Source of the DNA: Bacilli bacterium
GTDB taxonomy: Bacteria > Bacillota_I > Bacilli_A > ML615J-28 > CAG-698
Length of the DNA stretch: 64,000 nucleotides
Direction of reading: 5' to 3'
NCBI GenBank assembly: GCA_017962745.1
Contig: JAGCUR010000013.1
Span: forward strand, 1,046-65,045
How positions within the stretch are numbered: position 1 is the stretch's first letter; every line of letters begins with the position of its first letter. Under the pieces are notes generated by a model. That model saw only the letters and a list, made by a program, of their open reading frames with translations. It did no database searches and was not told the DNA's origin. Shown here one piece after another: positions 9,667 through 48,477 of the stretch. A program made the position numbers and the translations under genes.

Positions 9667-9677
9667 AATCTTATCTC

Positions 9678-10496
9678 CTAATTTCTTCTAATGCTTAATA
9701 ATTGGTTGGAAGCAATCATATTATAAATTACTGCTAGCACAATCCCAATCATATATATAAATCTAAGTCCAAATAATTCTGATAATAATCCGCTTACCAC
9801 CATTGGTGATAGCGCGTAACATGCAATTACATAATTTTCTTTAAATGAAATTATTCTTCTAGTGATTAACCTTTGTACTAAGGCGAGGACTACTCCGATC
9901 GCTAACATAATACCGAGGTTCGATAAAGTATAGCCAATGATTACTCCTATCGTAACATATGGAATATATCTTTTAATTTCTTTATTAACTACATTAAATA
10001 TATCATTCCAAAATTCATAATTTTGATCTGATATGGCATGATGTAAATTGATATTTGTTAACTCCGGATACTCTTCATACTTAAACATTGGCAGCGATGT
10101 AGCAAACCTACCATTTAAATAATAATAAATACTAACGCCATTTTCTAAAAAGACAATGCGGTAACTTGTTTTCTTTTCAGGATCAGATAATTCTTTTAGA
10201 GCAAATGTTACCATAATCTCTTCATCGATATAATAATCAGATAGCATTACTTCACTCGTATTAGATAATTTATTATTAACAATTGTGTAAGGTACTTCTT
10301 TATCCTTAAATGTATCTTGAATCTTTAATCTCTCATCGAGTGATAATTTATCAAACCTAGCTACTTTAATACTAGCCGGTATCATCATAATAAAGGCGAG
10401 TAGTAAAATGTAAACAAAGACCAAACCAAAACTATCAACACGCATGTTGATGATTTCAGTTGGGACAAATAAAGCTGTCTTTAATCTTTTAATCAT
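9678..10496 (-). CDS. hypothetical polytopic membrane protein (possibly DUF1189-like)
   Basis: 272 aa with several TM helices. It ends 11 nt upstream of leuS, so it is probably co-transcribed. Confidence 0.45.
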
Positions 10497-10593: not shown

Positions 10594-11421
10594 CTACTTA
10601 TACCAATTGGGATAGCATTCAATTTCAACTTTTTCGTTAGTTATTGGGTGCCTAAATCCTAATTTATAGCAGTGTAGCATCAGCTCACCATCGCCATCGC
10701 CATATAATTTATCCCCTAAAAGTGGGTGATTATGGTAGGCAAAATGCACTCTAATCTGGTGAGTCCTACCAGTAAGTAGCCTTGCTTCTACAGTAGATAC
10801 ATCGCCATTTTCTAACACTTTATAAATCGTATGAGCACTTTTGCCATCGCTAAATACCCATCTTTTAATGTTAATTTCTTCTACTCTTCGAATCGGATCA
10901 GTGTACTCACCTTCTAATTCTTCAAAAGAATTATGCACTTTACACAAATATAATTTGTCAAATTTGGCGTTATTTAGAAGGTTATGGACATATCCATTCT
11001 TGGCAATTAAGACAATACCACTTGTAGAAAAGTCGAGCCTAGTGACAATATGGATGTTAGAATCAATGCCTTTTTCTAAATAATATTTCTTAACTGAACT
11101 TATTAAGTTATCTTCTTGATGCCTTTTAGATGGCTGAATAGCTAGGTTAGATTGCTTATTTACGATTAGTAAATAATCATCTTCATAAAGAATATCGAGT
11201 GGGATATCATTAGTTTTAAAGTCTTCATTTAGCTTTTCATTATATTCTATTTCAATAATATCGCCTTTATTTACTTCGTAATAATTCTTTACGAGATTAC
11301 CATTTACATAAGCAATATCTTCTAATCTTACTCTTTTTAAAAGATTGCGTGATACGCCTTGCAGTTTTAAATAATCTTTTAATTTAATATTATCTTGATC
11401 TACTACATACTTAATTTTCAT
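10594..11421 (-). CDS. RluA family pseudouridine synthase
   Basis: 275 aa. Catalytic motif VTRLDFSTSGIVLIAKN and an N-terminal S4-like region. Confidence 0.85.
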   Translation of the reverse strand: MKIKYVVDQDNIKLKDYLKLQGVSRNLLKRVRLEDIAYVNGNLVKNYYEVNKGDIIEIEYNEKLNEDFKTNDIPLDILYEDDYLLIVNKQSNLAIQPSKRHQEDNLISSVKKYYLEKGIDSNIHIVTRLDFSTSGIVLIAKNGYVHNLLNNAKFDKLYLCKVHNSFEELEGEYTDPIRRVEEINIKRWVFSDGKSAHTIYKVLENGDVSTVEARLLTGRTHQIRVHFAYHNHPLLGDKLYGDGDGELMLHCYKLGFRHPITNEKVEIECYPNWYK

Positions 11422-16737: not shown

Positions 16738-18600
16738 CTACTTGTTTTTCGCATCCCACTTTTTACGTTCAACAGTATCTAAGATTCGCTTTCTTAATCT
16801 AACGCTTCTTGGTGTTATTTCAACAAGTTCATCATCGTTAATATAATCTAAGCATGCTTCTAGACTCATACGACGTGGTTTCTTTAAAACAACAGTAACT
16901 TCTTTATTTGATTCACGCATGTTTGTTAAATTCTTTTGTTTAGCAACATTAACGCTCATATCTTCTTCACGGTTACATTCACCAACGATTTGGCCTTCAT
17001 ATACTTCTTCATGTGGTTCAATAAATAATACGCCTCTGTCTTCAATATTACCAATACCATATGCATTACTAGTTCCGGTAAAGGCAGCAACTAGTACTCC
17101 CCACTTACGATTACCTAAAGTCGCATTTGCATCCATTGGACGGTAGTCTAAAAATGAATGTGATAAAGTTCCATAACCTTTTGTGGCAGTAAGGAAAGAT
17201 GTTGATAAGCCAATTAGTCCGCGGGAAGGGATTGTATAGATGATTCTAGTTTGGCTACCATCAGCACTCATATCTTCAAAGATACCACCACGGTTTCCAA
17301 ATAAGCTAATAACATCTCCTGCTGATTCATTTGGTACATCGATTTGCGCAAATTCGTAAGGTTCGCAAACGACCCCATCGATTTCTTTTAAAATCGGTTT
17401 TGGTCTTGATACTTGGAATTCATATCCTTCGCGACGCATATTTTCGATTAATATACCAAGATGTAATTCTCCTCTTCCGCAGACGATCCATTCATCACTA
17501 GTACCAATTCTTTTTACTCTTAAGCTAACATCCTTTTGAGTTTCTTTAAATAATCTATCATCAATTTTAGTACTAGTAACAAACTTGCCTTCTTTACCCG
17601 CAAATGGTGAAGTATTAGTACCAAAGATCATTTCGATAGTTGGTTCACTAACATGGATTGGTGGTAGGGCTTCTTCAGCGCCAACATCGCACACAGTTTC
17701 CCCTACATATATGTCACCAAGCCCAGCTATCGCTACGATATCACCTGCATAAGCGACTTCTGTTTCAATTTTATTTAAACCTAAAAATGTAAAGATCTTT
17801 TGAATTCTAAATTGCTTAATTGATCCATCCATTCGCATACAACTTGCCATTTGGTTAACGCGCATTACTCCGCGTTGAATCCTTCCAATTGCCATTCTAC
17901 CAACGTAGTCATTATAATCAAGTAATGATCCTTGGAATTGTAAGCTACCATCTTTGTTTACTGCTTTATGCGTTTTATCAGGAGCCGGAATTTCACTAAC
18001 AATTAAATCAAATAAAGGATCCATTGTCTCCTCTTGGGTTTCTAAGTCACTTGACAAGCTACACGTTCCTTTTAAAGCACTAACATATGCAACTTTAAAA
18101 TCAATTTGTTCATCTGTGGCACCTAACTCAATAAATAAGTCGATTACTTCATCTACAACCTCTTCGCATCTAGCCGAATCTTTGTCAACTTTATTGATAA
18201 CTACAATTGGCTTTAAGCCATATTCTAAAGCTTTCTTTAAAACAAATCGTGTTTGTGGCATTGTACCTTCATAGGCATCTACTACAAGTAATACACCATC
18301 AACCATTGTCATGATTCTTTCAACTTCGCCTGAAAAATCTGCATGGCCTGGTGTATCCAAAATATTAATTTTATAATTCTTATAATATATAGCAGTATTC
18401 TTAGCTAGAATAGTAATTCCTCTTTCACGTTCCAAATCATTAGAATCAAGTGCTCTTTCTTCAATTTGTTCTCTAGCTTGAAGAGTTGCACTCTTTTTTA
18501 ATAACTGGTCAACAAGAGTAGTTTTACCATGGTCAACATGTGCAATAATAGCTATATTTCTAATTTCCATATTTTCCATATATTCACTCTTTCTAGTCAA
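16738..18600 (-). CDS. typA: translational GTPase TypA/BipA
   Basis: IRNIAIIAHVDHGKTTLVD, DTPGHADF, NKVD motifs. The true start is probably at MENMEIRN, about 18576-18579, rather than the longest ORF. Confidence 0.9.
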   Translation of the reverse strand: MTRKSEYMENMEIRNIAIIAHVDHGKTTLVDQLLKKSATLQAREQIEERALDSNDLERERGITILAKNTAIYYKNYKINILDTPGHADFSGEVERIMTMVDGVLLVVDAYEGTMPQTRFVLKKALEYGLKPIVVINKVDKDSARCEEVVDEVIDLFIELGATDEQIDFKVAYVSALKGTCSLSSDLETQEETMDPLFDLIVSEIPAPDKTHKAVNKDGSLQFQGSLLDYNDYVGRMAIGRIQRGVMRVNQMASCMRMDGSIKQFRIQKIFTFLGLNKIETEVAYAGDIVAIAGLGDIYVGETVCDVGAEEALPPIHVSEPTIEMIFGTNTSPFAGKEGKFVTSTKIDDRLFKETQKDVSLRVKRIGTSDEWIVCGRGELHLGILIENMRREGYEFQVSRPKPILKEIDGVVCEPYEFAQIDVPNESAGDVISLFGNRGGIFEDMSADGSQTRIIYTIPSRGLIGLSTSFLTATKGYGTLSHSFLDYRPMDANATLGNRKWGVLVAAFTGTSNAYGIGNIEDRGVLFIEPHEEVYEGQIVGECNREEDMSVNVAKQKNLTNMRESNKEVTVVLKKPRRMSLEACLDYINDDELVEITPRSVRLRKRILDTVERKKWDAKNK

Positions 18601-20116
18601 AATTGATATGAATCATTTTTAGTTCATCATAAAAGTTCTTTTCGTGTGATACTAAAATAACAGTTCCGGGATAAGTTGCTATCTTTTCAAATAAAGATTT
18701 TTTAGCTAACTTATCAAGATGGTTAGTAGGCTCATCCAAGATTAGCAAATTAGATTTAGTTAAAGATAATTTAGCAAATCTAACTTTAGCAGCCTCGCCT
18801 CCGCTTAAATACTTCATACTCTTTAAAGGTAATTCTCCACTTACTCCATAACGAGCGAGGATTCCACGAATCTCTTTATCATCCAGCTGTGGATAATCAT
18901 TTCTAAAGTATTGCATAGCAGTAATATCTTCGGGTTCTTCTTCTTGAGCATAATAATAAATTGTATTTAAATCAGTTAAATCAAAGTTTCCTTTAATTGG
19001 TGCTAGCTTTCCTAAAATAGTTTTTACGAAAGTCGTCTTACCAATACCATTTTTCCCAATGATTACATACTTTTTACCAAATTCTAGTTTTAAGTTAATA
19101 TGTTCTAAAATTGGATGCGTATAACCAATACTTAAATCATTAACAACTAATGGTGATTTATGAAATGATTTTGTAAATTCAAAATTAAAGTGTACTGGCT
19201 TTTCGCTAACTGGCTTTTCCATTACTTCCAACCTATCAAGTATCTTTTGTCTACTTTGCGCACGGTGCGTAGTAGATGCTCTAACTAAGTTTTTATTAAT
19301 GAAGTCTTGTTGATGCTTGATATAAGCTTGTTGACGATTATATGCTTTCTCATAAGCGATACGATTTACTTCGTGTTGCTTTAAGTAAGCATCATAATTA
19401 CCTTTATAACGAGCAAGCAGTTTGTTTTCTAAAACCAATGTCACATCGCATACATTATTTAAAAAATCTACATTATGGCTAATTACAATAAAACTATTCT
19501 TATAGCCTGTTAAAAACTTAGTTAACCATTCTACGTGTCTAGCATCTAAAAAGTTAGTAGGTTCATCTAGTAACAATACATCTTTTTCTTCAAGTAACAT
19601 CTTACCTAAAAATACTTTAGCTCTTTGTCCACCTGATAATTCTTTTAAGCTTCTACCTTCTTCTATATCAATACCTAAACCGTTTATTACATTACCAATT
19701 TTAGATTTAATCATATAAAAGTTGTTTTCATCTAAAAAAGTTTGAATGTTTTCCGCTTTTCTTAAAATCTTATCATAATCATCAGGATTAGCATCAACTA
19801 AACTGTTATATAAATTATTCATCTCCTCTTCTTTTTTAAATAATGGTGTATAAACGTCATATAAATAGTCAGTTATTGAAATATCAGTTTTAACTTCAAG
19901 TTGTTGATCCAAATACGAAAATGTTACATTCTTATCCCAAATGATTTTACCTTCATCTGGAGTTAGGCGAAAGGCAAGTAAATTCATTAATGTAGATTTA
20001 CCAACACCATTTAGCCCAATCAAGCCAACATGTTCGCCATTATATATAGTTACTGATGCTTTATTAAAAAGTTCTTGTGCACCATAACCAAATTTTAAGT
20101 CGATAATCTCTAACAT
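18593..20116 (-). CDS. ABC-F family ATPase (tandem NBDs, no TMD)
   Basis: 507 aa. Two Walker A motifs (GLNGVGKST, GKNGIGKTT) and two LSGG signatures. No membrane domain. Confidence 0.85.
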   Translation of the reverse strand: MLEIIDLKFGYGAQELFNKASVTIYNGEHVGLIGLNGVGKSTLMNLLAFRLTPDEGKIIWDKNVTFSYLDQQLEVKTDISITDYLYDVYTPLFKKEEEMNNLYNSLVDANPDDYDKILRKAENIQTFLDENNFYMIKSKIGNVINGLGIDIEEGRSLKELSGGQRAKVFLGKMLLEEKDVLLLDEPTNFLDARHVEWLTKFLTGYKNSFIVISHNVDFLNNVCDVTLVLENKLLARYKGNYDAYLKQHEVNRIAYEKAYNRQQAYIKHQQDFINKNLVRASTTHRAQSRQKILDRLEVMEKPVSEKPVHFNFEFTKSFHKSPLVVNDLSIGYTHPILEHINLKLEFGKKYVIIGKNGIGKTTFVKTILGKLAPIKGNFDLTDLNTIYYYAQEEEPEDITAMQYFRNDYPQLDDKEIRGILARYGVSGELPLKSMKYLSGGEAAKVRFAKLSLTKSNLLILDEPTNHLDKLAKKSLFEKIATYPGTVILVSHEKNFYDELKMIHINFD

Positions 20117-20282
20117 GGTTACTCCCCTTCTTATCTAACTATTGCATTTTACCATAAATAGCATCCATTTACAATAAAATGAGAAATGTAAAAGGTTACA
20201 GCTATTGAAATTATGAGAGTTATCTGTGATTATTTATTTCATTAAACACGCTTTATAATAAATTAGATATTTTAATAATATA

Positions 20283-20345
20283 ATTAAAAAGAAATGATAA
20301 TCAATAATTAGCATCTATTATGCTTTATTAATAATTATCATTTCT
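20283..20345 (-). terminator. nested inverted repeat / terminator at the distal end of the Rhs-immunity locus
   Basis: 11-bp perfect IR GAAATGATAAT...ATTATCATTTC with an inner AGCAT/ATGCT stem, followed by a T-run on the minus strand. Confidence 0.5.
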
Positions 20346-20376
20346 CAATTGTGACATTTTTTCACAAACTAATATA

Positions 20377-21525
20377 TTATTGTAAAAACTCATATATAAA
20401 GAATCTATGGCTATCAATGTCTACCGTTAGAACTAGATATTCATCATATTTGAAGTAATCTATTTCGTTTTCTTTCAATCCTTCAATAGAATATACAAAA
20501 CAATAATCTATTTCCTCGTTGCTAATCGTTAGAGCAACATCGTATGGAAAATCGCTTGGATTACATTTTATAAAATCATTATTATTTTTAAGTTCATTAA
20601 ACTTTATAGCAAATTCATCTTCATTTGTTGTTGTAACAACAATTTCTCTAGTTGATTTGACAACTCTGCTTTCAATAATTGCATTTTTTGGTAATTGATA
20701 ACTTATTTTACTTTCAATATTCTTGATGATATCTGAATCGTAAGTAACAGGTGATACCCTTTGAAGGACTACGGAAAATGTGAACGCTAATAAAGCAAAC
20801 GATATTACTAATATTGATGTAATAAAAAACTTCTTCGCTTGTAGTAACAATCTCTTCCAAAATGCAGCAAAACATAACAAAAACATTGCTGGGATCATAC
20901 TTAATATGAATATCCACGATAAACTCATTACTTTGTCAACATACCAATAATAATCATTAGCTATTATTTTTGTTATCAAAAGACCAATAGGAAATACGTT
21001 CAAAGTGGTAATAAACAATAAATCCGTTATGGATGATGTATACACAATCTTTCTATCACTAATTTTACATCTACTCATATGCACATCATTGATACCTTGT
21101 TTACAATGCATGCTTAAGTAATCAATATATTCCTTTCGTTTATAAATTTTTACGTCATACATCTTTTCATTTGCGATGATATTACAATCAAAATATCCTC
21201 GAGAATTTAATGTATACATATACTTTTTTATGTCTGAAAGTTTAATAATATCGTTTTTTATACCTCTTAATATGTATAGCTTTTCATCTGTTCCAATCAC
21301 TTTATACTGAGTTTCGAATAGCACTATGAAATATATGATGGATAAAAAAAGCACAAAAATAATTGGTATTATGCGAACAAAAAAGTTTACTTTTCTATCC
21401 ATCAGCCAACTCGTCAACATTGACACAGCGAAAATAATTGATGGTAAAAAAATAGCAACCGCAGTAGCATTTTTGTTATAATCCACAAAAGAATAAATAC
21501 TTGAATCTTTGCTTTTATTAACCAT
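20377..21525 (-). CDS. polytopic membrane protein, candidate immunity protein for the orphan Rhs toxin cassette
   Basis: About 382 aa from the ATG at 21523-21525 (AGGTG RBS). The track ORF starts at an upstream GTG. Several TM helices. It overlaps the 3' end of the orphan CT by 8 nt. Confidence 0.6.
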   Translation of the reverse strand: MVNKSKDSSIYSFVDYNKNATAVAIFLPSIIFAVSMLTSWLMDRKVNFFVRIIPIIFVLFLSIIYFIVLFETQYKVIGTDEKLYILRGIKNDIIKLSDIKKYMYTLNSRGYFDCNIIANEKMYDVKIYKRKEYIDYLSMHCKQGINDVHMSRCKISDRKIVYTSSITDLLFITTLNVFPIGLLITKIIANDYYWYVDKVMSLSWIFILSMIPAMFLLCFAAFWKRLLLQAKKFFITSILVISFALLAFTFSVVLQRVSPVTYDSDIIKNIESKISYQLPKNAIIESRVVKSTREIVVTTTNEDEFAIKFNELKNNNDFIKCNPSDFPYDVALTISNEEIDYCFVYSIEGLKENEIDYFKYDEYLVLTVDIDSHRFFIYEFLQ

Positions 21526-22381
21526 AGTATGCACCTAACAAATTATCATTATCGAATTCTTTAACACAGCAGTATCTACCGCCTCCGCAAAAGCAACTAA
21601 CGAGTACAGTTCCTGCAACACCAACAATAATAGCACCGGTGGCTTGCTTTCCCTCAATCGCCATTGTTGAGTAAATTCCATCTGAAGAATACCCAGATTT
21701 AAAACCCATTGTTCCATCTTTTGATATTGTGACACCATATACAACACCATTTTTTAATATAACATCGATTCCAGCTGTTTTTTTTGATTGATAAAGTTCA
21801 ATTTTTACAGAATCACCGATTGGAAATCCAGAGCCAAAATAGGTTGTATCATTTCCCCGATCAACAAATGAATATCGTCCACCGTAGTTTTCGTGACTTT
21901 CTCCAACTGTGAAGGTGATGTTAACTATAGTATTACCAAACAGTTCATTACTGATCAAAGAATGTGTATAATGTGTCCTATCTGATACGTTTATTACCAC
22001 GTGACAACTAAGTAACAAGCCACCATTTTGCTGAAATGCGCTTGTCATTTTTTTATTAGAGGATAATAAAAATATACCAGTTGTTCTTCTCGTTATAGTC
22101 ACACTTGAATTTTCATAAACCAAAAGTATAGGATTATTTAAACAATACGCATATAGATTTAATCCACCAGCTACATTAGCATTTAAGTAATCCACACTAT
22201 CATACGATATAAATCTACCCCAATTAGGATTATAATATCTAGTTTTTAAATAATATAAATTATTTTCATAATCTATATAATATGATTTATAAATAATATG
22301 ATTAATATTACTTAAATCAACGCCTGGTAAATGACTTACATCAATTATATTACCATATGCATCATAAGTATATTCTAACAC
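21518..22381 (-). CDS. orphan Rhs C-terminal toxin cassette (5'-truncated, no ATG; about 80 aa of conserved Rhs core end plus about 207-aa novel CT)
   Basis: First about 80 aa (VLEYTYDAYGNIID...RYYNPNWGRFISYDSVDYL...NLYAYCLN) are near-identical to residues of the large Rhs protein. The apparent start is GTG, which equals the Val of the parent sequence. Divergent tail with a C-terminal Gly/Cys-rich hydrophobic segment. Confidence 0.7.
   Translation of the reverse strand: MLEYTYDAYGNIIDVSHLPGVDLSNINHIIYKSYYIDYENNLYYLKTRYYNPNWGRFISYDSVDYLNANVAGGLNLYAYCLNNPILLVYENSSVTITRRTTGIFLLSSNKKMTSAFQQNGGLLLSCHVVINVSDRTHYTHSLISNELFGNTIVNITFTVGESHENYGGRYSFVDRGNDTTYFGSGFPIGDSVKIELYQSKKTAGIDVILKNGVVYGVTISKDGTMGFKSGYSSDGIYSTMAIEGKQATGAIIVGVAGTVLVSCFCGGGRYCCVKEFDNDNLLGAYYG
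22142..22381. repeat. about 240-bp direct repeat (copy 2) of the rhs core-end region, about 90% identical to 23841-24080
   Basis: Judged by direct DNA comparison of the two segments. Confidence 0.8.
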
Positions 22382-22437
22382 AATCTTTTTATATTTTTAA
22401 GATTTTGGCTTCATATTATTTGCAATTAAACATTGCA

Positions 22438-23310
22438 TTAATTGCGATTTGAAATATACTCATATCTTTCATCAGAAAAGACACTTTTATTAAAATAAAC
22501 AAATTGTATACTATTATTTTCTAAATCGTATTCATATACTATATCAGAAGTAAAAATGTTATTCAGGCCAAGCCGATAAATAAGTAAAATATGACCATAA
22601 GAAATATATATTTTACATGGCTTATATTCAACTTTTGACATATCTTCGCGGTATTGAGAGTTTTCAAAATAGTCATTATTAATGATAGTAACTTCGTCTG
22701 TCAAAAGATCTTTTATTTCAAAAGATTTTCTATCATCGGTAATTTTTACATCAATATTATATTTCTTTTTTTGCTCCTCATATCTAATATCTTCTAGATT
22801 GACGTTTTCGCCTTTTGAATAATTGTAATATCTTTTTTCTATCACATCATATACATCAATAATATTTGATTCATCTTTAGTACTATATAAAATATAAAAA
22901 CAATTATCAAAAGTCATATACTTTGGGTTCTTTTTTATTGATTCAGTGGTGTATAACTGATTTACTACATTATCAAGCATATTCATCGAATAAAAAGTTA
23001 TTTTTACATTTGACAAACCGCGCTCATATAAATAGAATACTTCATTTGATGTAAGAATTATTTGATTATTGTCATAAATCTTGTTTATAGCAAAAATTGA
23101 TTTTTCATATTCTCTATATTCAACAGAAGCACTTGTTATATCAGCTATATTTTCGTTATTTTCGTATTTTTCGAATATTTTTTCAATTTTGTCTTCAGTT
23201 CGATATCTTTTTTCATCTCTTATATATAGCCATAGTTCAAAAATTACAAATAGGATGCTTACTACTATTATTGGGAAAATTATAAAGTAAATCTTTTTCT
23301 TAATTGCCAT
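22438..23310 (-). CDS. candidate immunity protein for the main Rhs toxin (N-terminal TM anchor)
   Basis: 290 aa. AGGAGGG RBS. ATG overlaps the rhs 3' end by 31 nt. N-terminal TM FIIFPIIVVSILFVIFELWLY. I recognise no family. Confidence 0.6.
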   Translation of the reverse strand: MAIKKKIYFIIFPIIVVSILFVIFELWLYIRDEKRYRTEDKIEKIFEKYENNENIADITSASVEYREYEKSIFAINKIYDNNQIILTSNEVFYLYERGLSNVKITFYSMNMLDNVVNQLYTTESIKKNPKYMTFDNCFYILYSTKDESNIIDVYDVIEKRYYNYSKGENVNLEDIRYEEQKKKYNIDVKITDDRKSFEIKDLLTDEVTIINNDYFENSQYREDMSKVEYKPCKIYISYGHILLIYRLGLNNIFTSDIVYEYDLENNSIQFVYFNKSVFSDERYEYISNRN

Positions 23311-26300
23311 GGGTACCCTCCTATAAAATTGTAAAAATCTTGGGTTGCAGCAAAAGGATTAAAGTTCCAATAAAGAAGTTGCATACCAGCCGAACACACT
23401 ATTTCATCTATCTCTGTTCTCCCGATAATATCGTTATAAATTGTATGCCCCACATCCAAATCTTTAAATCGTGGATTTTTGGTCAAAGCGTATGCGATAT
23501 TATGACAAAGCCACTCAAACTCGACACCTATAGACGAGCCATCAATAATATCTCTCGTTTTTTCTTTAAAATAATTCAAATATATGCTGTATCCATATTT
23601 TATCCATGGGGTATGTATTTTTGACGAATCTTTCAAAGTCACATTACCATCTTTTACTATGATGTCGTCTTCTTCATTTATATTGCCCATAGCAATAATA
23701 TCCGATGTTGTTGATGCAACAGCGCCTATCATAGTGGCAATAGGATCTGCTAGTACTGCACCAATATACATAACGATCGTCCAAAATTTTCCCCAATCAA
23801 ATGTCCCTTCTGGATCGCAGCCATTTACAGGATCATTCAAGCAATATGCGTATAAATTTAATCCACTAGCTATATTAGCATTTAAGTAATCTACACTATC
23901 ATATGATATAAACCTACCCCAATTAGGATTATAATATCTAGTTTTTAAATAATATAAATTATTTTCATAATCTATATAATACGATTTATAAATAATATGG
24001 TTAATATTACTTAAATTAACGCCTGGTAAATGATTTACATCAATAATATTCCCATATGCATCATAAGTATATTCTAAAACAATATTACCAATGCTGTTAG
24101 AAATGTATTTAATTACTCCTAATATATCTTTAATATAGCAATATGTACTACCATTATATATAAAGCCATATACATTATTATCTTTATCATATAAATACTT
24201 AACAATATAAAAACTATTATTATTTAAATTTGTTATCTTTTCCCCAACTAAATTACCTTTAATATCATAAACATATTTAAATGATTTGTCATCAGTTACT
24301 TTTTTAATTCTTCTGCCTAAATGATCATAATCATAACTAATAGTACCATAGCTCTTTAGTTTCATCCCTTCCCAAGTTAAATTGGTATTGTTGATTGTTG
24401 ATGGGAGGGAATTGGTATAAGAATCATATGTGATGATTTCAATATCATTATTATTTTCATCTGTTATTCTAGTTAATGCATTTTTGTTTAGATTATCTTC
24501 ATATTTGTAATTTCGTGTATTAACAACAACATCGTTTACTTTAATCTCTCTTTTTAAAATGTTACCACTATTATCATATGTATATACTCTTTCTTGAGCA
24601 GAGTTTTGTTCTAAATTCTTGTCATGTGTTAAGTAACCTAATGCATTATATTCATATTGTTTAATAATATTATTATTTCTTTTGATCTTTTTTATTCGAT
24701 TCATTGAATCATATATGTATTCTAATGTCATATTATTATTTAAGTAAGATATGATTTCATTTTCAACTTTTGATGTTCCATTATAATCATATGCATATGA
24801 TGTCTTTTTGTAATTATATGTATTACATATAATTAGATTATCATCATGTATTATATTTCTTTTTGATAATCTATTTAGGCTATCATATTTATTTTCTAAT
24901 AATGAATGATTTAAGAACATCATATCGTTTTGTAAAGAACTGATACTTTTATATGTTCTATCGATGCATAGCATCTCAATAAAACCATCTAATGGCTCAC
25001 TTAAATCATTGGTATTACCTAACTGTAATTTTAAATAATTACTATCCAGATTTATACTTAATGCATAGTCGTCTATATAATTATTATTAAGTACAACTCT
25101 ATAATTAAATGTACCATTATTATAATAATACGAAAAAGCTAATGTATTTACATCATTATTAATAACTAAACTATTGCTAATTAAATTATTATTTAAATAT
25201 AGTTTATTATTAATTATTGATAATTTAATAGCTTGATTATCTGCAAATAATCTAAATAATGTTTTTGATTCAGCTTCATTAATATTATTCTCGTTTATTG
25301 TAAACCTTAATAAAATTGTACCTGAATTCGTTAAGCCTGTCTGATAAATTACTTTATTTTTATTTACGTATAGATTACATCTATGCGACTTTTTATTATA
25401 AATAAAGGAATTATCAATAAGTTCGTTATTATCTTTAGTTACATCAATTAAATCCACTTGCAAAGTATGCATATTTGGTAAAGTTTTAAAATCATTAAAT
25501 AATGGTAAAACTTTATAATTATCTAATAGCGATTGATTGAACAATGTAGTTGAAGTAAAGCCTGTGAATGTATAATTACCATCATATTCAATATTACCAA
25601 ATACATAGTTTAGACCAAAATATGATAATTCATATACGCCATTAAAGTTAATCCCTCTATGTGCAATAATCCCATATACATATAAATTAGCACCATAAGT
25701 TTGATTATCGGAAGTGCATCCAATTGAAAGTTTTTTAAATGTTACATTACTAACACTACAATTATAATCTTTATTGTTAATGAGTAAATGCAATGTATTA
25801 CTATCAAGCACTAAAGATATCGCATATATTTTATTAGTATCTAATTCAATATATTCATTGATTAACTGATTATTACCATAATTGCAACTTATATAATGAG
25901 TACTAGAATTATAAGTTACATATAGATTAATATCACTTGAACTTTTGAAAGATGCAATTATGCCTCCTGCTTTAATTTTTGAAAAGACTGTAACGCCATT
26001 AATTTGTTTATTTGTAATATCGTAAGTTAATCTAGTTTGCGTGCTTATAAGTTTTATTATTGAAACGCAGTGCTCACTAACAATTAAAGGGTTAACATTT
26101 GATGTAATAACATCTTCATCTATTCCCCCGTTATCGCCTTTATAAACTAAATTACTACTTTCTAAATCAAAAAAACACGAATAATTAGCATTATGATCAT
26201 TTGATCTTGCTAGCCTTATCTTTTCATAATAATGCTCAGGTGCAAATACATTGCTTTCTTTAGAATCAGTAAATGCTTGAAACGTCTCATTACTATCGTT

Positions 26301-28817
26301 AAATATCAAATTATATAATCTAATAATACTATTTGTATTATCACGAAGCATATTTGATACAATTTCGTTACTTTCAATTTCGCACAAATTATCTTCTTCA
26401 TCATATGCTAAATTAATGGTAGAATCATTTGTATTATTATGGATTTCTTTTAATCTATTATATGCATCATATAGAAAACTAAATTTACTAATATCTGTAC
26501 TAGTACCATGATCTCTATATTTTACTGTCGATAAATTATATTTGTTATCATAATCAAAAATGTATTTATCCCCATTATCACCATACTCTTTTGATTTAAT
26601 TAAAGATAGATGGGGAAGAGATGATGAATCTTCATTTACATATTTAATATTTATTAAACTTTTATATATAATCTGATAGGTATCATCATATATTAATCTT
26701 ACACTTGATAATCGATTATCATTATTATAAACGCTTTGTACCTCATTATCGCGTCTGTCAGTTAAAACATCAACTGCTAAATTAGATCCATAACTTATTA
26801 AATTTTGATCTTTAAGTACATCGTTGTCATCTTTGATGACTACGCTATTTAATAAATTCTTTTGATTATATGAATAAAAATATTGGCTACCATCTGGTAA
26901 TACCTTTCTTTCCACTAAATAATGTTTTGTCCCATTACTTTCATATTCTATTTGATAATCTTCTACTTTTTCTCTAGAAATGAATTCCCCATTTGATTCA
27001 TATTCATATTCTTTTCTTAGATATATTTTTCTATCTTTGAAAACAGATGCATCATACTCATGACTAGTTAATACTTCGTTTGTAACTTCGTTATAATTAT
27101 TGTATTGGTAATTTGTTTTATTGCCAAATAGCCCTGCTTGTTCTTCTATTAAATCATCACTCACTAAGTTATTATCTCTAGTAGCAATATAGTTATAATC
27201 ATAATGCGTTATATTATATTTTCCAAATGCACTAATTACTTTATTGTTTTCATTTATTAAATATTTAGTTTCGTTTTTACCAACTAATATATTCGTAATA
27301 TTATTGTTATTATCATAAGTATATGCAAAACCTGCTATTTGTTTAGTTAAACATATTGAATCAAATGTGTATGTGGCTCCACTTCCTTTTATAAAGAATA
27401 ATACTTTGATTTTGTCAAAACCAACTTCTGGATTAATCTCAAAAAAGAATAATTCTTTATAATCCGTGTTACTTGGCAACGCCTTAGAATAAGTTATCCA
27501 CTCATTGTTACCTTTTAATAATGATATTTTAACTGTCGCGCTAGTTCCTTCTACTTCACATTTAGTTAAACATCTAAATACATAAGTATCTAAAGGCGTA
27601 CCGCTAACATTAATTATTTGATATGTACTGCTTACAAAAGGTATGGAATTGTTTTGTATTTTTAATAGTTTTGAAGATGTTACATATTCATTATTGTAAT
27701 AATAATTAGCATCAGCATTATTTATATATGATACATTAGCATTATCAGACTGCCAAGATGGTGTACTTCCTTGGCAAAAACCATCACTTATTAAATTATT
27801 AATTTCTGTTTGATGTAAATAATTATTTTTAAAAGCATTTGATTTAAAAATAATATTTTTGCGTGAATCAAATCTTTGCCCTGCTATATATTTATTTGTA
27901 TCAATTATATGATTAATTAAATAATTATCATCAAAATAATAATGAGTATGCATATTATTATAACTAACAACTGTGTGATAATTATTTATTAAATTAATAG
28001 AGGTTACATCAAAAGTATTATCATTAGTGCCTCTACCTTCATATACTGTATATGTACCATTTGTTGGGTGTTCTACTAATATTCTTTCTTTTGTGATTGT
28101 ATTGTACATTTGATAAACCGGATCGAATGATAATTGTATATTATTAACTAGATTATTTGTTCCATTATTAATAATATAATAATTAATATTGTTTATATAA
28201 TTTGAAGAAAAAGTAATTATAACTTTGCGTACGTTTACATAATCTTTTCTAATTGTTGCTTCGAGTGCCCCATAAATCATTGGCATAAAATCTATTGCTT
28301 CACCATAATTATTATAAATAGATTCTATGTAGTCTTCATCATAACTGAAATGGATTTTATTAATTGTATTATTTCTATCTTCAATTAATATTAATTTGTA
28401 TGAAGAATCAAATGTATATACACTATCAATATAGACAATCTTTTTTTGATTGTTCTCTATTACCATATATGAAGCAAGGTCAATATTTTCATATCTATTA
28501 TTTTGATTGATGTAATCTTCTGTTGACATATCAGCGTTTGTAACTACATATTTATCATTTTGACTATCGTATGATAATTCTTTCATAATAGACAGTTTAC
28601 AACCAGTTTTAAAATTACAATCAACTTCATTGCTTGAGGAAGTATATATTAAAGATAAATTTATTGGAGATAATTTATAAGGGGAATTATAAAGGGGAAT
28701 TATAAAATGAAGATTATCAAAGTTTTTTGATAAATTAATATACGTGTTAGATCCATCGCTTATAGATGCATTGAAATATGTTCCATATGATTTGATACCT
28801 TGATTAGCCATAATCAT
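23280..28817 (-). CDS. Rhs / YD-repeat polymorphic toxin (1845 aa)
   Basis: Many YD-type repeats (YDxxGN..., YxYDxxGR...). Rhs core end RYYNPNWGRFISYDSV...NLYAYCLNDPVNGCDPEGT. A variable CT of about 175 aa follows. AGGAGT RBS. No signal peptide. Confidence 0.9.
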   Translation of the reverse strand: MIMANQGIKSYGTYFNASISDGSNTYINLSKNFDNLHFIIPLYNSPYKLSPINLSLIYTSSSNEVDCNFKTGCKLSIMKELSYDSQNDKYVVTNADMSTEDYINQNNRYENIDLASYMVIENNQKKIVYIDSVYTFDSSYKLILIEDRNNTINKIHFSYDEDYIESIYNNYGEAIDFMPMIYGALEATIRKDYVNVRKVIITFSSNYINNINYYIINNGTNNLVNNIQLSFDPVYQMYNTITKERILVEHPTNGTYTVYEGRGTNDNTFDVTSINLINNYHTVVSYNNMHTHYYFDDNYLINHIIDTNKYIAGQRFDSRKNIIFKSNAFKNNYLHQTEINNLISDGFCQGSTPSWQSDNANVSYINNADANYYYNNEYVTSSKLLKIQNNSIPFVSSTYQIINVSGTPLDTYVFRCLTKCEVEGTSATVKISLLKGNNEWITYSKALPSNTDYKELFFFEINPEVGFDKIKVLFFIKGSGATYTFDSICLTKQIAGFAYTYDNNNNITNILVGKNETKYLINENNKVISAFGKYNITHYDYNYIATRDNNLVSDDLIEEQAGLFGNKTNYQYNNYNEVTNEVLTSHEYDASVFKDRKIYLRKEYEYESNGEFISREKVEDYQIEYESNGTKHYLVERKVLPDGSQYFYSYNQKNLLNSVVIKDDNDVLKDQNLISYGSNLAVDVLTDRRDNEVQSVYNNDNRLSSVRLIYDDTYQIIYKSLINIKYVNEDSSSLPHLSLIKSKEYGDNGDKYIFDYDNKYNLSTVKYRDHGTSTDISKFSFLYDAYNRLKEIHNNTNDSTINLAYDEEDNLCEIESNEIVSNMLRDNTNSIIRLYNLIFNDSNETFQAFTDSKESNVFAPEHYYEKIRLARSNDHNANYSCFFDLESSNLVYKGDNGGIDEDVITSNVNPLIVSEHCVSIIKLISTQTRLTYDITNKQINGVTVFSKIKAGGIIASFKSSSDINLYVTYNSSTHYISCNYGNNQLINEYIELDTNKIYAISLVLDSNTLHLLINNKDYNCSVSNVTFKKLSIGCTSDNQTYGANLYVYGIIAHRGINFNGVYELSYFGLNYVFGNIEYDGNYTFTGFTSTTLFNQSLLDNYKVLPLFNDFKTLPNMHTLQVDLIDVTKDNNELIDNSFIYNKKSHRCNLYVNKNKVIYQTGLTNSGTILLRFTINENNINEAESKTLFRLFADNQAIKLSIINNKLYLNNNLISNSLVINNDVNTLAFSYYYNNGTFNYRVVLNNNYIDDYALSINLDSNYLKLQLGNTNDLSEPLDGFIEMLCIDRTYKSISSLQNDMMFLNHSLLENKYDSLNRLSKRNIIHDDNLIICNTYNYKKTSYAYDYNGTSKVENEIISYLNNNMTLEYIYDSMNRIKKIKRNNNIIKQYEYNALGYLTHDKNLEQNSAQERVYTYDNSGNILKREIKVNDVVVNTRNYKYEDNLNKNALTRITDENNNDIEIITYDSYTNSLPSTINNTNLTWEGMKLKSYGTISYDYDHLGRRIKKVTDDKSFKYVYDIKGNLVGEKITNLNNNSFYIVKYLYDKDNNVYGFIYNGSTYCYIKDILGVIKYISNSIGNIVLEYTYDAYGNIIDVNHLPGVNLSNINHIIYKSYYIDYENNLYYLKTRYYNPNWGRFISYDSVDYLNANIASGLNLYAYCLNDPVNGCDPEGTFDWGKFWTIVMYIGAVLADPIATMIGAVASTTSDIIAMGNINEEDDIIVKDGNVTLKDSSKIHTPWIKYGYSIYLNYFKEKTRDIIDGSSIGVEFEWLCHNIAYALTKNPRFKDLDVGHTIYNDIIGRTEIDEIVCSAGMQLLYWNFNPFAATQDFYNFIGGYPWQLRKRFTL
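23841..24080. repeat. about 240-bp direct repeat (copy 1) inside the rhs gene, homologous to 22142-22381
   Basis: Judged by direct DNA comparison. Encodes VLEYTYD...AYCLN. Confidence 0.8.
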
Positions 28818-28921
28818 TTACTCCTTTTTCTTTATAATAAAATTATACATTTATAATATTGCATATGTAAACATTATAAAAGAAAAACAATGACTATAGT
28901 TAGCCATTGTCTTTCTTTTTA

Positions 28922-30463
28922 TTAATCATCAGCACCAAGTGCATCTAATCCTTTAGCATTTTCACCAGTATCTTTTTTATGTGGTGCCTTTACAAAGAAG
29001 AATACAGCACCAGCTATACCCATTAGGGTAGCTGAGTAAATTGGTAAAGCAACCCAACTAGTTTTGATGAAGATGAAACCGATTAGAATTGGTGTAATCG
29101 ATTGAGCTAACATACTAGCTGTATAGTATAGTGAAGTAAATCTTCCAAGTTTATCTGATGTACAATAATCAGTTACAAGAGGGAATGAACAAATATGGAT
29201 TAATGATGATCCAAATCCGATTGCTGGTAACAATACGAAGAATAACCAAGGAAGGCTAGCTGCGAATGTTCCATGAGTATTTGATTCAGGAATTAATGAA
29301 TAGATGATGTAACATACACATACTAAGCAAATACCTGAGAATATTGTCCATTTACGACCAATCTTATCAGCTAAGAAACCAGCTGTTAAGAAACCGATGA
29401 TTGAAGCAGCACCTGATACAACTGTCATGATAGCTCCACCGGCACTAGATGTATCTAGCCAGAACATTACATAGTTTGTTTGGAATGTTTCTACGGCATT
29501 TAGTGACATGAACCAGAACATTTCTGCAATTAGAATTAACACTAAGTTACGCATATTGTTCTTTGATAGTTTTTCAGTAGTTGTAACTTGTTCTGCAGAT
29601 TCACCCATCGCATCACCAAGTTTGATTTCTTCATCAAGTTCTTCGTGTAATTTATTTTCTCTTACTTTAAATAATAAAAGAACTAAAGATCCTAGCAAGC
29701 AGACGCTGCAAACAATAAATGGGATTTCTAACATTAATAATGATCTATTAGAACCATCAATATATTTTGTAACTGGAATTACGATAGCTGCAACTGATCC
29801 AACTGCTCCACCAACATAACCAACGATATTGATAATACCATTAGCTCTACTTCTTAGTGGTTTTGGTGTTAAGTCTGGCATTAATGCAACAGCTGGTGAA
29901 CGATAACTCATCATGAAGATGATGATTAAGCACATCATTGCAACCATTCCGACAATCATTCCTAGCATAGCTGCGCTTTCAGCTGCCATTGCTTTAACGA
30001 AGAATAGTGGAACAAATGGTAGAACCATTGCTGTAACAACTGATCCTACGATGATAAATGGCATTCTCTTACCAAGTTTAGTTTTAGTCTTATCTGATAA
30101 GTTACCAAATATAGGCATAATGAATAAAGCAGCGATATTATCAAGTGCCATGATAATACCTACTTTCCATTGAATTTGTAAGTAATCTTGTTCAGTAATA
30201 AAGTTATGTGCTAGCAAGTCTTTCATTGTAGCATAACCGGCAGCAGCACCAGCTGCTACTTGATCAGCATAATCATGTCTAGCAAACATAAATGATAACA
30301 TTGGTGCACAATATGAATTATATAATTGCCATACAAGTAAAATACCAAAGAAGGCAAGTCCAATCCACATCGTACGTTTTAAATAATCTTTATTAAACGA
30401 TATCTTTTTTGTTTCTGTTATTTCCATAAACTCCTCCATAACATAACCATTATACCAATTCAC
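28922..30463 (-). CDS. MFS transporter (with long central cytoplasmic loop)
   Basis: 513 aa, at least 12 TM segments. A charged central loop of about 60 aa. Confidence 0.8.
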   Translation of the reverse strand: MNWYNGYVMEEFMEITETKKISFNKDYLKRTMWIGLAFFGILLVWQLYNSYCAPMLSFMFARHDYADQVAAGAAAGYATMKDLLAHNFITEQDYLQIQWKVGIIMALDNIAALFIMPIFGNLSDKTKTKLGKRMPFIIVGSVVTAMVLPFVPLFFVKAMAAESAAMLGMIVGMVAMMCLIIIFMMSYRSPAVALMPDLTPKPLRSRANGIINIVGYVGGAVGSVAAIVIPVTKYIDGSNRSLLMLEIPFIVCSVCLLGSLVLLLFKVRENKLHEELDEEIKLGDAMGESAEQVTTTEKLSKNNMRNLVLILIAEMFWFMSLNAVETFQTNYVMFWLDTSSAGGAIMTVVSGAASIIGFLTAGFLADKIGRKWTIFSGICLVCVCYIIYSLIPESNTHGTFAASLPWLFFVLLPAIGFGSSLIHICSFPLVTDYCTSDKLGRFTSLYYTASMLAQSITPILIGFIFIKTSWVALPIYSATLMGIAGAVFFFVKAPHKKDTGENAKGLDALGADD

Positions 30464-41179: not shown

Positions 41180-41235
41180 ATAACTAACTTAGTATCAATA
41201 AAAAAAGAATTGATGAAACATCAATTCTTATAATA

Positions 41236-41311
41236 TGGTGCCCGAGACAAGATTTGAACTTGCGACCTACGCATTACGGGTGCGTTGCTCTACCAGCTGA
41301 GCTACTTGGGC
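41236..41311 (-). tRNA. tRNA-Thr (anticodon CGU)
   Basis: Cloverleaf folded by hand: acceptor GCCCAAG/CTCGGGC (one A.C mismatch), U8 A9, D-arm GCTC-AGCTGGTA-GAGC, anticodon arm ACGCA-CCCGUAA-UGCGU, T-arm GCAAG-TTCAAAT-CTTGT, encoded CCA. Position 33 is C, which is unusual. Confidence 0.7.
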
Positions 41312-41318
41312 ACCGATA

Positions 41319-42608: not shown

Positions 42609-43534
42609 TTAGACTTCCCTTTTTCTTTTGATCTCTTGTCATTTATTATTTGCATTTCTTTTTCAGTAATTAATGTACAGTTATTTTCTTTAGCCCAGTT
42701 AACACAGCCCGTTAATACTAGTTTTAAGAATGGGCGAGGGACTTTAACTAACATCTTTAGCGCATCATCAGAAAACTTAACTACATCATCAATACGATCG
42801 GCTGCATATCTTACACTAGTTAAATCCACTTCACGGTTAGGAATAGGTTGCGCATTTGGCTTTTTATAATCCGAACACCAGAAGTTTTTCGAATCTCTAT
42901 AGCCCCAGTTTGTGGCAAGAGGCATAAAGTTCGATTTAGTTACACCATTGATGATCGCATCATAATACTTTTCCTTCATCAAAATCTTATCGACTTTTAA
43001 AATGAAGTGGGCACCAAACTTTGATGTAATACCATTAAAGTTATGATATGGACCGCTATATTCTTCTTGAACAGTAGTATCTTCACAATCTTCTAATTCT
43101 TTCCACCAACTACATTCAAAAACTTGTAGAGCTTCACTTATAACTTTTGGATATTTTTCATCTTTATTAGCTTCAGCTAATAAGCCATCTTCTAGGTGGA
43201 AACAAAAATCTTTCATCTTCTCTTCTGGTGTATCACCAGGAAAGCCTAAATCAACGTGTTTAGCAAATATCTTTTTTGAATATGGTAAAAAGTTAATCGT
43301 GCATTTACCATGTCTAATAATACCCTTAGCGGTATTCGATGTGTTTCTACATTCTAACACCATTGCATAGTGATCTTTACCGGCAATGTAATAAGGAAAA
43401 CATAATGAGTAAGCTCCAAAACTAGTCTTTTCCCCTTTTTCATCAAGCGTCCCAATTAAGCATAGTGGCATTGGGAAGAATGATGAAGTTTGATAAAAGT
43501 TATCAACTATTCTTAAATTTTTAAAACTGCTCAT
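42605..43534 (-). CDS. hypothetical protein with flavin-reductase-like N-terminal domain
   Basis: 309 aa. The N-terminal pattern PMPLCLIGTLDEKGEKTSFGAYSLCFPY...VLECRNTSNTAKGIIRHGKCTINF resembles FMN-binding split-barrel flavin reductases. Confidence 0.45.
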   Translation of the reverse strand: MSSFKNLRIVDNFYQTSSFFPMPLCLIGTLDEKGEKTSFGAYSLCFPYYIAGKDHYAMVLECRNTSNTAKGIIRHGKCTINFLPYSKKIFAKHVDLGFPGDTPEEKMKDFCFHLEDGLLAEANKDEKYPKVISEALQVFECSWWKELEDCEDTTVQEEYSGPYHNFNGITSKFGAHFILKVDKILMKEKYYDAIINGVTKSNFMPLATNWGYRDSKNFWCSDYKKPNAQPIPNREVDLTSVRYAADRIDDVVKFSDDALKMLVKVPRPFLKLVLTGCVNWAKENNCTLITEKEMQIINDKRSKEKGKSK

Positions 43535-48473: not shown

Positions 48474-48477
48474 TTTC

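Follow-up and report, generated by a model that had tools for sequence, protein, structure and literature searches.

The locus analysed here is best read, with a probability of about 0.8, as a Rhs polymorphic-toxin island that an uncultured rumen bacterium of the Bacilli, related to Acholeplasma, acquired horizontally. The kind of weapon is already familiar; this one belongs to a rare, unstudied branch, and its toxin domains are undescribed. A preliminary description of the window, the whole stretch of 64,000 nucleotides that was analysed, had placed four minus-strand open reading frames here (23280-28817, 22438-23310, 21518-22381 and 20377-21525), and all of them are present. The sequence supports reading them as a polymorphic-toxin locus with a putative main tip (CT1) and a putative spare, orphan tip (CT2), in which the 290-aa protein is probably the antidote of the main toxin. 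The features are as follows, in transcription order.

20202..28921, minus strand: whole island, about 8.7 kb, flanked by the genes for an MFS transporter (28922-30463) and an ABC-F protein (18593-20116)
28878-28919: terminator of the MFS gene, just before the promoter-like site
28842..28871, minus strand: promoter-like site TTTACA-18-TATAAT (11/12, a consensus match only), upstream of the Rhs gene and just past the MFS terminator
23280..28817, minus strand: main Rhs gene, ORF of 1845 aa from its first ATG; probable start at ATG 28811, giving 1843 aa
27813..28790, minus strand: first YD-repeat beta-shell segment, Rhs aa ~10-335, beginning almost at the N-terminus; signal peptide, PAAR and LXG absent
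27333..27800, minus strand: carbohydrate-binding-module-like (CBM-like) beta-sandwich inside the shell, Rhs aa ~340-495
24918..26237, minus strand: shell insertion, Rhs aa ~861-1300, aligned to ConA-like lectin (Laminin_G_3 / CBM40-like) domains of the family
23805..24065, minus strand: Rhs-associated core domain, aa 1585-1671, ending in PVNGCDPEG (aa 1663-1671), the PxxxxDPxG boundary motif
23283..23804, minus strand: main tip CT1, aa 1672-1845 (174 aa), a TM helix followed by a domain of ~125 aa
23721-23777, minus strand: TM helix of the main tip, aa 1681-1699
22438..23310, minus strand: immunity candidate 1 (imm1), 290 aa, a TM anchor (aa 10-28) and a domain of ~260 aa
22127..22387, minus strand: orphan core copy, a 261-nt direct repeat of 23826-24086, 92% identical
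21518..22381, minus strand: orphan cassette, 287 codons, an 85-aa core remnant and the 202-aa CT2 (nt 21521-22126)
21587-21643, minus strand: C-terminal TM helix of CT2, aa 247-265, followed by a Cys/Gly-rich tail
20377..21525, minus strand: immunity candidate 2 (imm2), 382 aa (385 aa from 21534), five predicted TM helices and a C-terminal soluble part
about 20284..20346, minus strand: intrinsic-terminator-like hairpin, AT-rich stem of ~24 bp and U5 (RNAfold -32.3 kcal/mol, z -5.7)

The island has an empty counterpart in a sister genome, Bacilli bacterium RGIG8164 from buffalo rumen (L010), in which the MFS gene is followed directly by the ABC-F gene across a 140-nt spacer; the ABC-F products of the two genomes are 95% identical. 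Homology between them stops at the MFS stop codon and picks up again at 'TGTAACCTTTTACATT', at about 20201. The G+C content is 24-28% in the island vs 32-34% in its flanks, with 24% in the Rhs body and shell, 35% in the main tip and 35.5% in the orphan tip. A check of the island edges for direct repeats or mobility genes gave no more than a weak AT-rich resemblance, which was not trusted. A Pfam search of 43 of the larger ORFs of the window returned no secretion-system, transposase or integrase domain (six of the 43 had no Pfam match at all), in agreement with the preliminary description, which had reported no such genes nearby. The expression signals comprise the promoter-like site, Shine-Dalgarno (SD) sequences for imm1 and imm2 with none for the orphan, and the terminator. 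This terminator, already proposed as closing the unit, was confirmed as a hairpin with a U-tract; a simple terminator scanner missed it because the stem is poor in G-C pairs. Genetic code 4 was considered, given the Mollicutes affinity of the host, and was ruled out. The standard code applies because all four island genes end in TAA and TGA is a stop elsewhere in the window, where it ends seven genes; Trp is encoded by TGG. A 5.5-kb ORF in DNA of 25% G+C, the 261-nt repeat and the HMM E-values are all far beyond chance.

The main gene had been described as encoding an 1845-aa Rhs protein with its own tip. The ORF of that length exists, but the second ATG (28811) is likely to be the real start: it has an SD (aaaggag) 9 nt upstream, gene callers report 1843 aa, and the N-termini of the family read M-x-N-Q-G. 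An N-terminal extension is impossible because the first ATG is directly preceded by an in-frame TAA. The N-terminus is all-beta, with shell strands from about aa 14, and hydropathy analysis revealed no hydrophobic stretch ahead of aa 1681. The 210-kDa protein has no signal peptide, PAAR or LXG, and no secretion gene was found among its neighbours (Pfam and NCBIfam, in the window). The earlier label "contact-dependent" is without support here, since no export or delivery route is recognisable. The YD-repeat beta-shell is present; the Pfam RHS_repeat score lies just under threshold (20.6 vs 22 bits), which relatives exceed. In the region aligned to aa ~861-1300, six of seven family members carry Laminin_G_3 (Pfam, best 1e-12) and one carries a Sialidase N-terminal lectin match (2.5e-8). 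The family profile of this region matches PDB 6er2-4 (3.8e-4); the window protein itself has no direct Laminin_G_3 match in Pfam. TIGR03696 (Rhs_assc_core, NCBIfam) matches the core domain, aa 1585-1671, at an E-value of 1.5e-17 (63.8 bits, cutoff 32.5). In a phmmer search of the PDB, aa 1364-1671 matched RhsP (8h8a, 3e-22), and PDB sequence matches were confined to the last 300 residues of the shell. The PxxxxDPxGL motif separates shell from tip in Rhs proteins and holds the catalytic Asp of the autoprotease (PMC8636562). In the main protein it reads P1663-VNGC-D1668-P-E-G followed by T instead of L, and cleavage is predicted. The variable tip follows aa 1671.

Both tips and both downstream proteins had been placed outside recognised families, and this was borne out: none matched Pfam, NCBIfam, PADLOC, PHROGs or PDB sequences, and when profiles of the two tips were searched against PDB sequences, or Pfam was run at E-values up to 10, only noise came back. 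The main tip had only three homologues among 5.8 billion clusters, two of which (P0002 and P0003) lie behind other Rhs cores with DPxG and a TM helix. Members of this family share the invariant motif NYF..T.D.I.GSS.G..FEW..HN. An AF2 model of the tip, built on a four-sequence alignment, reached a pLDDT of 36 and was unusable. A GSSxG...H...D pattern conserved across the four sequences gives a weak hint of a membrane-anchored hydrolase, in a domain too small for a canonical alpha/beta hydrolase. The gene imm1 overlaps the Rhs 3' end by 31 nt, has an SD (GGAGGG) 5 nt upstream of its ATG, and encodes a protein with a single N-terminal TM helix by hydropathy, matching the small overlapping TM protein first described. 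At one locus elsewhere (L090), an intact, 95%-identical 290-aa gene adjoins a stop-riddled remnant of the main tip; at another (L091), a homologue of the tip is followed by a lipoprotein-type gene, whose product showed no similarity to imm1 in BLASTP.

The orphan cassette is the 5'-truncated copy that had been described, opening in frame at a GTG without an ATG. Its GTG corresponds to Val1580, and its first 85 residues match aa 1580-1664 of the main protein at 92% identity; TIGR03696 matches its aa 6-86 (E 8e-16, above the 32.5-bit cutoff). The cassette has no SD, and an in-frame stop lies five codons upstream of the GTG. No DPxG follows CLNNP in the orphan, which reads CLNNP-ILLV-YENS, so that 'CLNNPILLVYENSS' stands in place of PxxxxDPxG; its homologues (NPICIISTQT and NPIHIINIQV) also have no DPxG. 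The downstream gene imm2 overlaps the end of the orphan by 8 nt, with a weak SD (AGGTG) 7 nt upstream, and its five TM helices agree with the polytopic membrane protein of the preliminary description.

A word-indexed protein search with the orphan tip gave no match among 5.8 billion clusters, and CT2 homologues were found only by walking upstream from imm2 homologues. The latter (P0005, 65%; P0006, 60%) invariably come right behind a CT2 homologue and overlap it to the same extent. Orphan tip and 5-TM partner recur jointly and ungapped, at 50-65% identity, in a different genomic context. At six loci (L093-L098), the 8-nt overlap is the same and the module aligns without gaps over ~2 kb at 50-90% nucleotide identity, terminator included; in L095 the terminator region is kept at 80% nucleotide identity. 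Homologues of the orphan cassette at these loci are 50-61% identical; the 202-codon tip aligns to versions 44-52% identical, free of gaps and stops, and its last 44 aa are about 91% conserved. The neighbours of the module elsewhere are unrelated genes (Lactamase_B, SPOUT, UvrB), and all of those other contigs break inside the core.

The clade of the Rhs protein itself is rare, with 25 matches among 1.84 billion representatives; its named members belong to Anaeroplasmataceae, Haloplasmataceae and "Bacilli" MAGs. The shell of clade members contains lectin-type insertions, and an export domain is not recognisable in them. A scan of genome contigs and one of JGI metagenomes, both with the Rhs protein, gave no relative; a JGI scan with the core alignment gave nine distant Rhs cores (L101-L109), 37-47% identical and uninformative for the clade. 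Tip polymorphism, which the preliminary description had proposed to check by comparative genomics, was found: among six full-length relatives, identity drops from 0.38 to 0.09 after aa ~1670. In other genomes the tip-partner pairs behave as modules. A sign of recombination activity comes from a strain variant (L005), in which 26 of 37 SNPs are packed into Rhs aa 1363-1571, a stretch that lies just upstream of the repeat; aa 1572-1845 and imm1 have no SNP. More distant family members repeat the layout of Rhs, membrane protein, orphan and small protein. One of them (L099) has a Rhs gene, a 132-aa polytopic protein, an orphan beginning 'NLFMYCGNNPVMNVDPSG' and then a 132-aa protein, and behind another Rhs protein (P0020) comes a 164-aa TM protein. 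Two distant relatives have an NTP_transf_2 gene ahead of them; this gene is absent at the window locus and was rejected as a component of the system. Membranes are a common theme: a TM helix occurs in both window tips, TM or Gly-rich tips in P0013, P0015 and P0020, and the partners throughout are membrane proteins or lipoproteins.

In the proposed mechanism, the shell would enclose the main tip, which an aspartyl autoprotease (Asp1668) would free, and the lectin-type modules would attach to glycans of a neighbouring cell. A TM helix is present in both tips, and membrane targeting is therefore the best guess. The TM-led main tip may act on or in the target cytoplasmic membrane as a pore, an ionophore or a membrane-anchored hydrolase, while the membrane-anchored 290-aa protein would protect the producer. 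For the Rhs pore-former Tse5, delivery occurs by shell-membrane contact and requires cleavage (PMC10684867). The orphan tip would be silent as it stands; RecA-type recombination across the 261-nt repeat would join it to the shell gene, with loss of tip 1 and its partner. An orphan is activated by recombination in Salmonella (PMC3967940). The 5-TM protein, translated from its own weak ribosome-binding site, would protect against relatives bearing tip 2. A swapped-in tip 2 might not be released, because its family does not have the DPxG that holds the catalytic Asp.

This last point bears on an unlikely alternative, in which the orphan is a decaying relic that cannot be translated by itself and would stay uncleaved and inert even if recombined onto the shell, and selection acts on the 5-TM gene alone, as orphan immunity or because of a different role in the membrane. 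The missing ATG and SD, the upstream stop and the lack of cluster matches for the tip fit such a relic, as does the replacement of the motif with the catalytic Asp (PMC8636562), given that cleavage-dead Tse5 is inactive (PMC10684867). However, the tip has remained open, gapless and stop-free against six homologous loci, with its last 44 aa strongly conserved, and a full-length relative, P0011, likewise has no DPxG. The absence of DPxG is common to all CT2 copies and is therefore a conserved trait of a selected family rather than recent decay.

Two further readings concern the target rather than the spare tip. The protein could be a surface adhesin or a teneurin/Tc-like toxin directed against eukaryotic targets (rumen protozoa, fungi or host epithelium, for example), with lectin modules that would bind eukaryotic glycans. 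We consider this improbable: coupled membrane-protein genes, orphan modules and hypervariable tips are the signature of self-protection from a kin-hitting toxin, and TcA, SpvB, NHL and FN-plug domains were not found (Pfam, PDB sequences). It is less probable still that the locus acts inside its producer, by addiction (post-segregational killing) or abortive infection, with a Rhs protein that is never exported. The lack of a signal peptide or known trafficking domain, and the maintenance of an island that has no mobility genes, would suit such a role, but all characterised Rhs toxins are exported (PMC8636562). Moreover, there is no PADLOC match, and the lectin-type modules and the membrane-anchored or lipoprotein (L091) partners point to an extracytoplasmic site.

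Rhs toxins have been studied in depth in Gram-negative bacteria, where they are delivered by T6SS, and in a few Firmicutes (WapA). Sequence identity to the T6SS effectors RhsA of P. protegens (7q97), Rhs1/Tre23 of P. laumondii (7pq5) and Tse5 of P. aeruginosa (8cp6) is about 10%. Unlike these, the window has no PAAR, prePAAR TM region, VgrG, Eag chaperone or T6SS genes, its host is monoderm, and its shell begins at about residue 10, with CBM-like and lectin-like modules interrupting it. As in the orphan rhs-CT/rhsI modules of Enterobacteria (Salmonella Typhimurium LT2, E. coli, Dickeya; PMC3967940, PMC3150448), a truncated core, an alternative tip and a (here putative) immunity gene lie downstream of the main rhs, and repeat homology would allow recombination that expresses the orphan. 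Here, in contrast, there is a single orphan, its tip has no DPxG, and tip 1 and its partner would be lost on recombination between the direct repeats unless a duplication came first. WapA of Bacillus subtilis and Streptococcus suis (PMC12704120) shares with the window locus a monoderm host, a Rhs body, a polymorphic C-terminal toxin, a downstream immunity gene (a candidate in the window locus) and the absence of a dedicated injection machine; however, it has a Sec signal peptide and cell-wall-binding repeats, and the window protein has neither. Tc TcB-TcC cocoons and teneurin-like proteins (5kis, 6sue, 9ifo; PMC13018210) also differ, as the window protein has no TcA partner and no SpvB, beta-propeller, NHL, FN-plug, ABD or Tox-GHH domain (by Pfam). 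Searches with Pfam and NCBIfam found no helical N-terminal domain of the T7SS LXG/WXG kind, and no FtsK/EssC-type gene lies in the window; nor were the TPS domain, FHA repeats, VENN motif or CdiB transporter of CDI (CdiB/CdiA) found in the protein or the window. The searched literature contained no link between Rhs/YD-repeat toxins and Mollicutes-related bacteria.

A bolder reading, possible but tentative, is that the window protein stands for a clade of Rhs toxins confined to Mollicutes-related lineages (Anaeroplasmataceae, Haloplasmataceae and uncultured rumen and gut Bacilli) and acting without an injection machine. The CBM-like and ConA/CBM40-like modules of the cocoon would dock on glycans of wall-less or thin-walled neighbours, and the TM-helix-led tip would be handed directly to the exposed cytoplasmic membrane, in some cases uncleaved. 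Such self-delivery would account for two regularities of the clade: its tips are nearly all hydrophobic, and membrane proteins or lipoproteins make up nearly all of the partners. By analogy with the teneurin C-terminal domain, the tips of the orphan family and P0011 may have dispensed with DPxG autoproteolysis and act while tethered to the shell.

The locus offers two tip families and two partner families, each with a handful of homologues among billions of sequences, a conserved tip family without the canonical release motif, and a shell that was modelled confidently, with lectin-type modules apparently built in. If its tips are membrane-active and deliver themselves, it would be a compact model for Rhs delivery independent of secretion systems, and it would be relevant to competition between kin in gut and rumen bacteria with reduced genomes; otherwise, it is a well-delimited standard polymorphic-toxin island with an empty-site control.

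The locus consists of four minus-strand ORFs, whose positions agree exactly with those in the preliminary description:

23280-28817, minus strand, main Rhs ORF, 1845 aa
22438-23310, minus strand, immunity candidate 1, 290 aa
21518-22381, minus strand, orphan cassette, 287 codons counted from GTG
20377-21525, minus strand, immunity candidate 2, 382 aa (the mechanical ORF reaches 21534)

The Rhs and 290-aa genes overlap by 31 nt, and the orphan and the 382-aa gene by 8 nt. TAA is the stop codon of all four genes and TGA terminates seven other genes of the window; thus, the standard code applies. An in-frame TAA lies directly 5' of the first Rhs ATG. The second ATG (28811) is favoured as the probable start because Shine-Dalgarno spacing, gene callers (1843 aa) and family N-termini agree. 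A promoter-like site (TTTACA-18-TATAAT) is located immediately 5' of the Rhs start, past the terminator of the MFS gene. The 290-aa gene is preceded by GGAGGG, 5 nt ahead of its ATG and within the Rhs 3' end, and the 382-aa gene by AGGTG, 7 nt 5' of its start. No Shine-Dalgarno sequence was found 5' of the orphan GTG, and an in-frame stop lies five codons 5' of it. The last gene is followed by a long AT-rich hairpin with U5 (z = -5.7). The plus strand opposite the Rhs 3' end contains two ORFs of 106 and 101 aa (23304-23889), probably artefacts of the AT-rich composition.

The four genes form an island between housekeeping genes. ABC-F, BipA, DegV and U32 peptidase lie on one flank; the other carries MFS, an F420-ligase-like gene and glycerol-3-P dehydrogenase. 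The identical locus is present on several metagenome contigs. The nearest species-level genome comes from buffalo rumen (Bacilli bacterium RGIG8164; 95% identity in ABC-F). There, MFS and ABC-F are adjacent with a spacer of 140 nt; this empty site places the island bounds at about 20202-28921. The next relatives, Acholeplasmataceae and gut 'Bacilli' MAGs, show 55-65% identity. The hairpin terminators 3' of MFS differ in sequence between the window (28878-28919) and RGIG8164 (L010, 9880-9912), which places the left island junction directly past the MFS stop codon; the island supplied or replaced the MFS terminator. A Pfam search of the remaining window genes revealed no secretion, transposase or integrase gene, which bears out the earlier statement that none lies nearby.

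Other window genes were also recorded. The 750-aa product of 4777-7029 (minus strand) carries a collagen triple-helix repeat (Pfam Collagen, 7e-8) and is possibly a surface fibre protein; its gene adjoins a LytR_cpsA_psr gene (3729-4718). Three successive minus-strand ORFs of 669, 429 and 309 aa (39170-43534), between a mechanosensitive-channel gene and tRNA-Thr, had no Pfam match at 1e-6. A full arginine deiminase pathway cluster (arginine deiminase, ornithine carbamoyltransferase and carbamate kinase; 46567-49686, minus strand) is consistent with Mollicutes-like energy metabolism.

Main protein and orphan share the Rhs core. The NCBIfam model TIGR03696 (Rhs-associated core) matches aa 1585-1671 of the main protein (E 1.5e-17) and aa 6-86 of the orphan (E 8e-16). 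Orphan residues 1-85 match main-protein aa 1580-1664 at 92% identity, and both begin at the same Val; at the DNA level this is a direct repeat of 261 nt, 92% identical, with copies 1699 nt apart. The main-protein core terminates in P-VNGC-DPEG, a PxxxxDPxG boundary; in the Rhs autoprotease, the second DPxGL motif harbours the catalytic Asp (PMC8636562). A strain variant (L005) differs from the window by 37 SNPs, of which 26 are concentrated in Rhs aa 1363-1571 (24105-24729), just 5' of the repeated core; Rhs aa 1572-1845 and the 290-aa gene are free of them. Such a mosaic suggests recombination around the core and gene conversion.

Sequence matches to solved Rhs and teneurin structures are confined to aa 1364-1671, and Pfam RHS_repeat is slightly sub-threshold on the main protein, whereas clade relatives score above threshold. 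When 1.84 billion representatives were searched by HMMER with aa 1-1200, only 25 proved to be relatives. Six of these, 1600-2000 aa long and 22-27% identical, are nearly full-length, with alignments starting at residue 2-5. Named clade members derive from Anaeroplasmataceae, Haloplasmataceae and 'Bacilli bacterium' MAGs; P0019 and P0038 are the members linked to Anaeroplasma or Haloplasma relatives. A CBM-like module occupies aa 340-495. A second insertion, at aa ~861-1300, aligns to a region in which six of seven family members score as Laminin_G_3 (best 1e-12) and one as a sialidase-type N-terminal lectin (2.5e-8), and its family profile matches PDB 6er2-4 chains and sialidase L; the window protein alone, a very Asn-rich protein, gave no direct lectin-domain match there. 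Among the relatives, P0017 (147 aa) has the clade N-terminus (first 47 residues) fused to unrelated sequence, and P0011 (2008 aa) has no DPxG past the core and a HEWGH zincin-like motif in its tip. A ~315-aa NTP_transf_2/Polbeta-type protein is encoded directly 5' of the distant Rhs relatives P0015 and P0020 (L110 1195-2130; L111 821-1786). The two copies are 29% identical. The gene, absent from the window and from related loci L099 and L100, could serve part of the clade in an accessory role.

Past the core, similarity falls away: identity between the window protein and six relatives is 0.38 in the core versus 0.09 past aa ~1670, and G+C is 35% in both tips versus 24% in the shell. The tip of the main protein (tip 1, aa 1672-1845) comprises a TM helix (aa 1681-1699) and a ~125-aa domain. 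Just three homologues were found among 5.8 billion clusters, and two of them are preceded by a different Rhs core with DPxG motif and TM helix. They share the motif TPWxxYGYSIYLNYF..T.D.I.GSSxG..FEW..HN...K.LD.G.TI, whose GSSxG/H/D pattern hints weakly that tip 1 could be a hydrolase. A lipoprotein-type gene (MKKIALWIITCLLIIGLSSC...) comes directly after the tip 1 homologue in L091. In L090 (1-444), tip 1 is reduced to a stop-riddled remnant (last 105 aa, 78% identical), and the 290-aa gene adjoining it is intact at 95% identity, the classic picture of putative immunity kept without its toxin.

The orphan tip (tip 2, orphan aa 86-287) had no match in a word-indexed protein search. Homologues of the 382-aa protein were found at 65% and 60% identity, and every contig carrying one has a core fragment and tip directly 5', with the same 8-nt overlap; these tips share 44-52% identity with tip 2. 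Between the window and L095, the alignment runs ungapped for ~2 kb (core, tip, partner gene and terminator; 50-90% nt identity), and similarity ends past the terminator. Elsewhere, the module has different neighbours (Lactamase_B, SPOUT methyltransferase, UvrB). The ungapped alignment and the different neighbours argue that tip 2 and its partner are a conserved, portable module under purifying selection. In all copies DPxG is missing past 'CLNNPI', and the last 44 residues of the family (TM helix, CFCGGGRYCC, acidic tail) are ~91% conserved. Judged from gene order, the distant relatives L099 and P0020 follow the same grammar as the window locus: L099, flanked by housekeeping genes, reads Rhs (TM/Gly-rich tip), 132-aa polytopic protein, orphan starting NLFMYCGNNPVMNVDPSG, and 132-aa protein, and directly 3' of P0020 lies an overlapping gene for a 164-aa membrane protein. 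L099 is the locus of the relative P0013; its orphan cassette (9335-10367) begins inside the core end, and the 132-aa protein behind this cassette is soluble. Another remnant, also Gly-rich, occupies 10617-10964.

The locus carries the defining sequence features of an Rhs polymorphic toxin with an orphan module, as first proposed. It differs from every known delivery class: the PAAR/VgrG, LXG and Sec-export features of T6SS Rhs effectors, T7SS toxins and WapA, respectively, are absent from it, as are the defining features of Tc toxins, teneurin-like proteins and CDI. The architecture, modules, island status and expression signals are observed directly, and its action may be pictured as follows. 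The shell would encapsulate tip 1, with release depending on Asp1668, and the CBM and lectin modules would dock on glycans. The tips would act at the target's cytoplasmic membrane, as judged from the TM or Gly-rich segments in both tips and most family tips and from partners that without exception are membrane proteins or lipoproteins. Such targeting would be analogous to that of Tse5, whose shell hands over a pore-forming tip upon membrane contact, cleavage being needed (PMC10684867). The 290-aa and 382-aa proteins would confer protection, and recombination across the 261-nt repeat would activate the orphan, as in Salmonella (PMC3967940). The label 'contact-dependent', though it may still apply, is without support, since no export route could be recognised for the Rhs protein.

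For Mollicutes-related bacteria, the literature searched yielded no work on Rhs or YD toxins. By its sequence features, the locus is an Rhs polymorphic-toxin system of a rare clade associated with these bacteria. It brings two undescribed tip families, one of them without the canonical release motif, and may represent a self-delivering, membrane-targeting Rhs.
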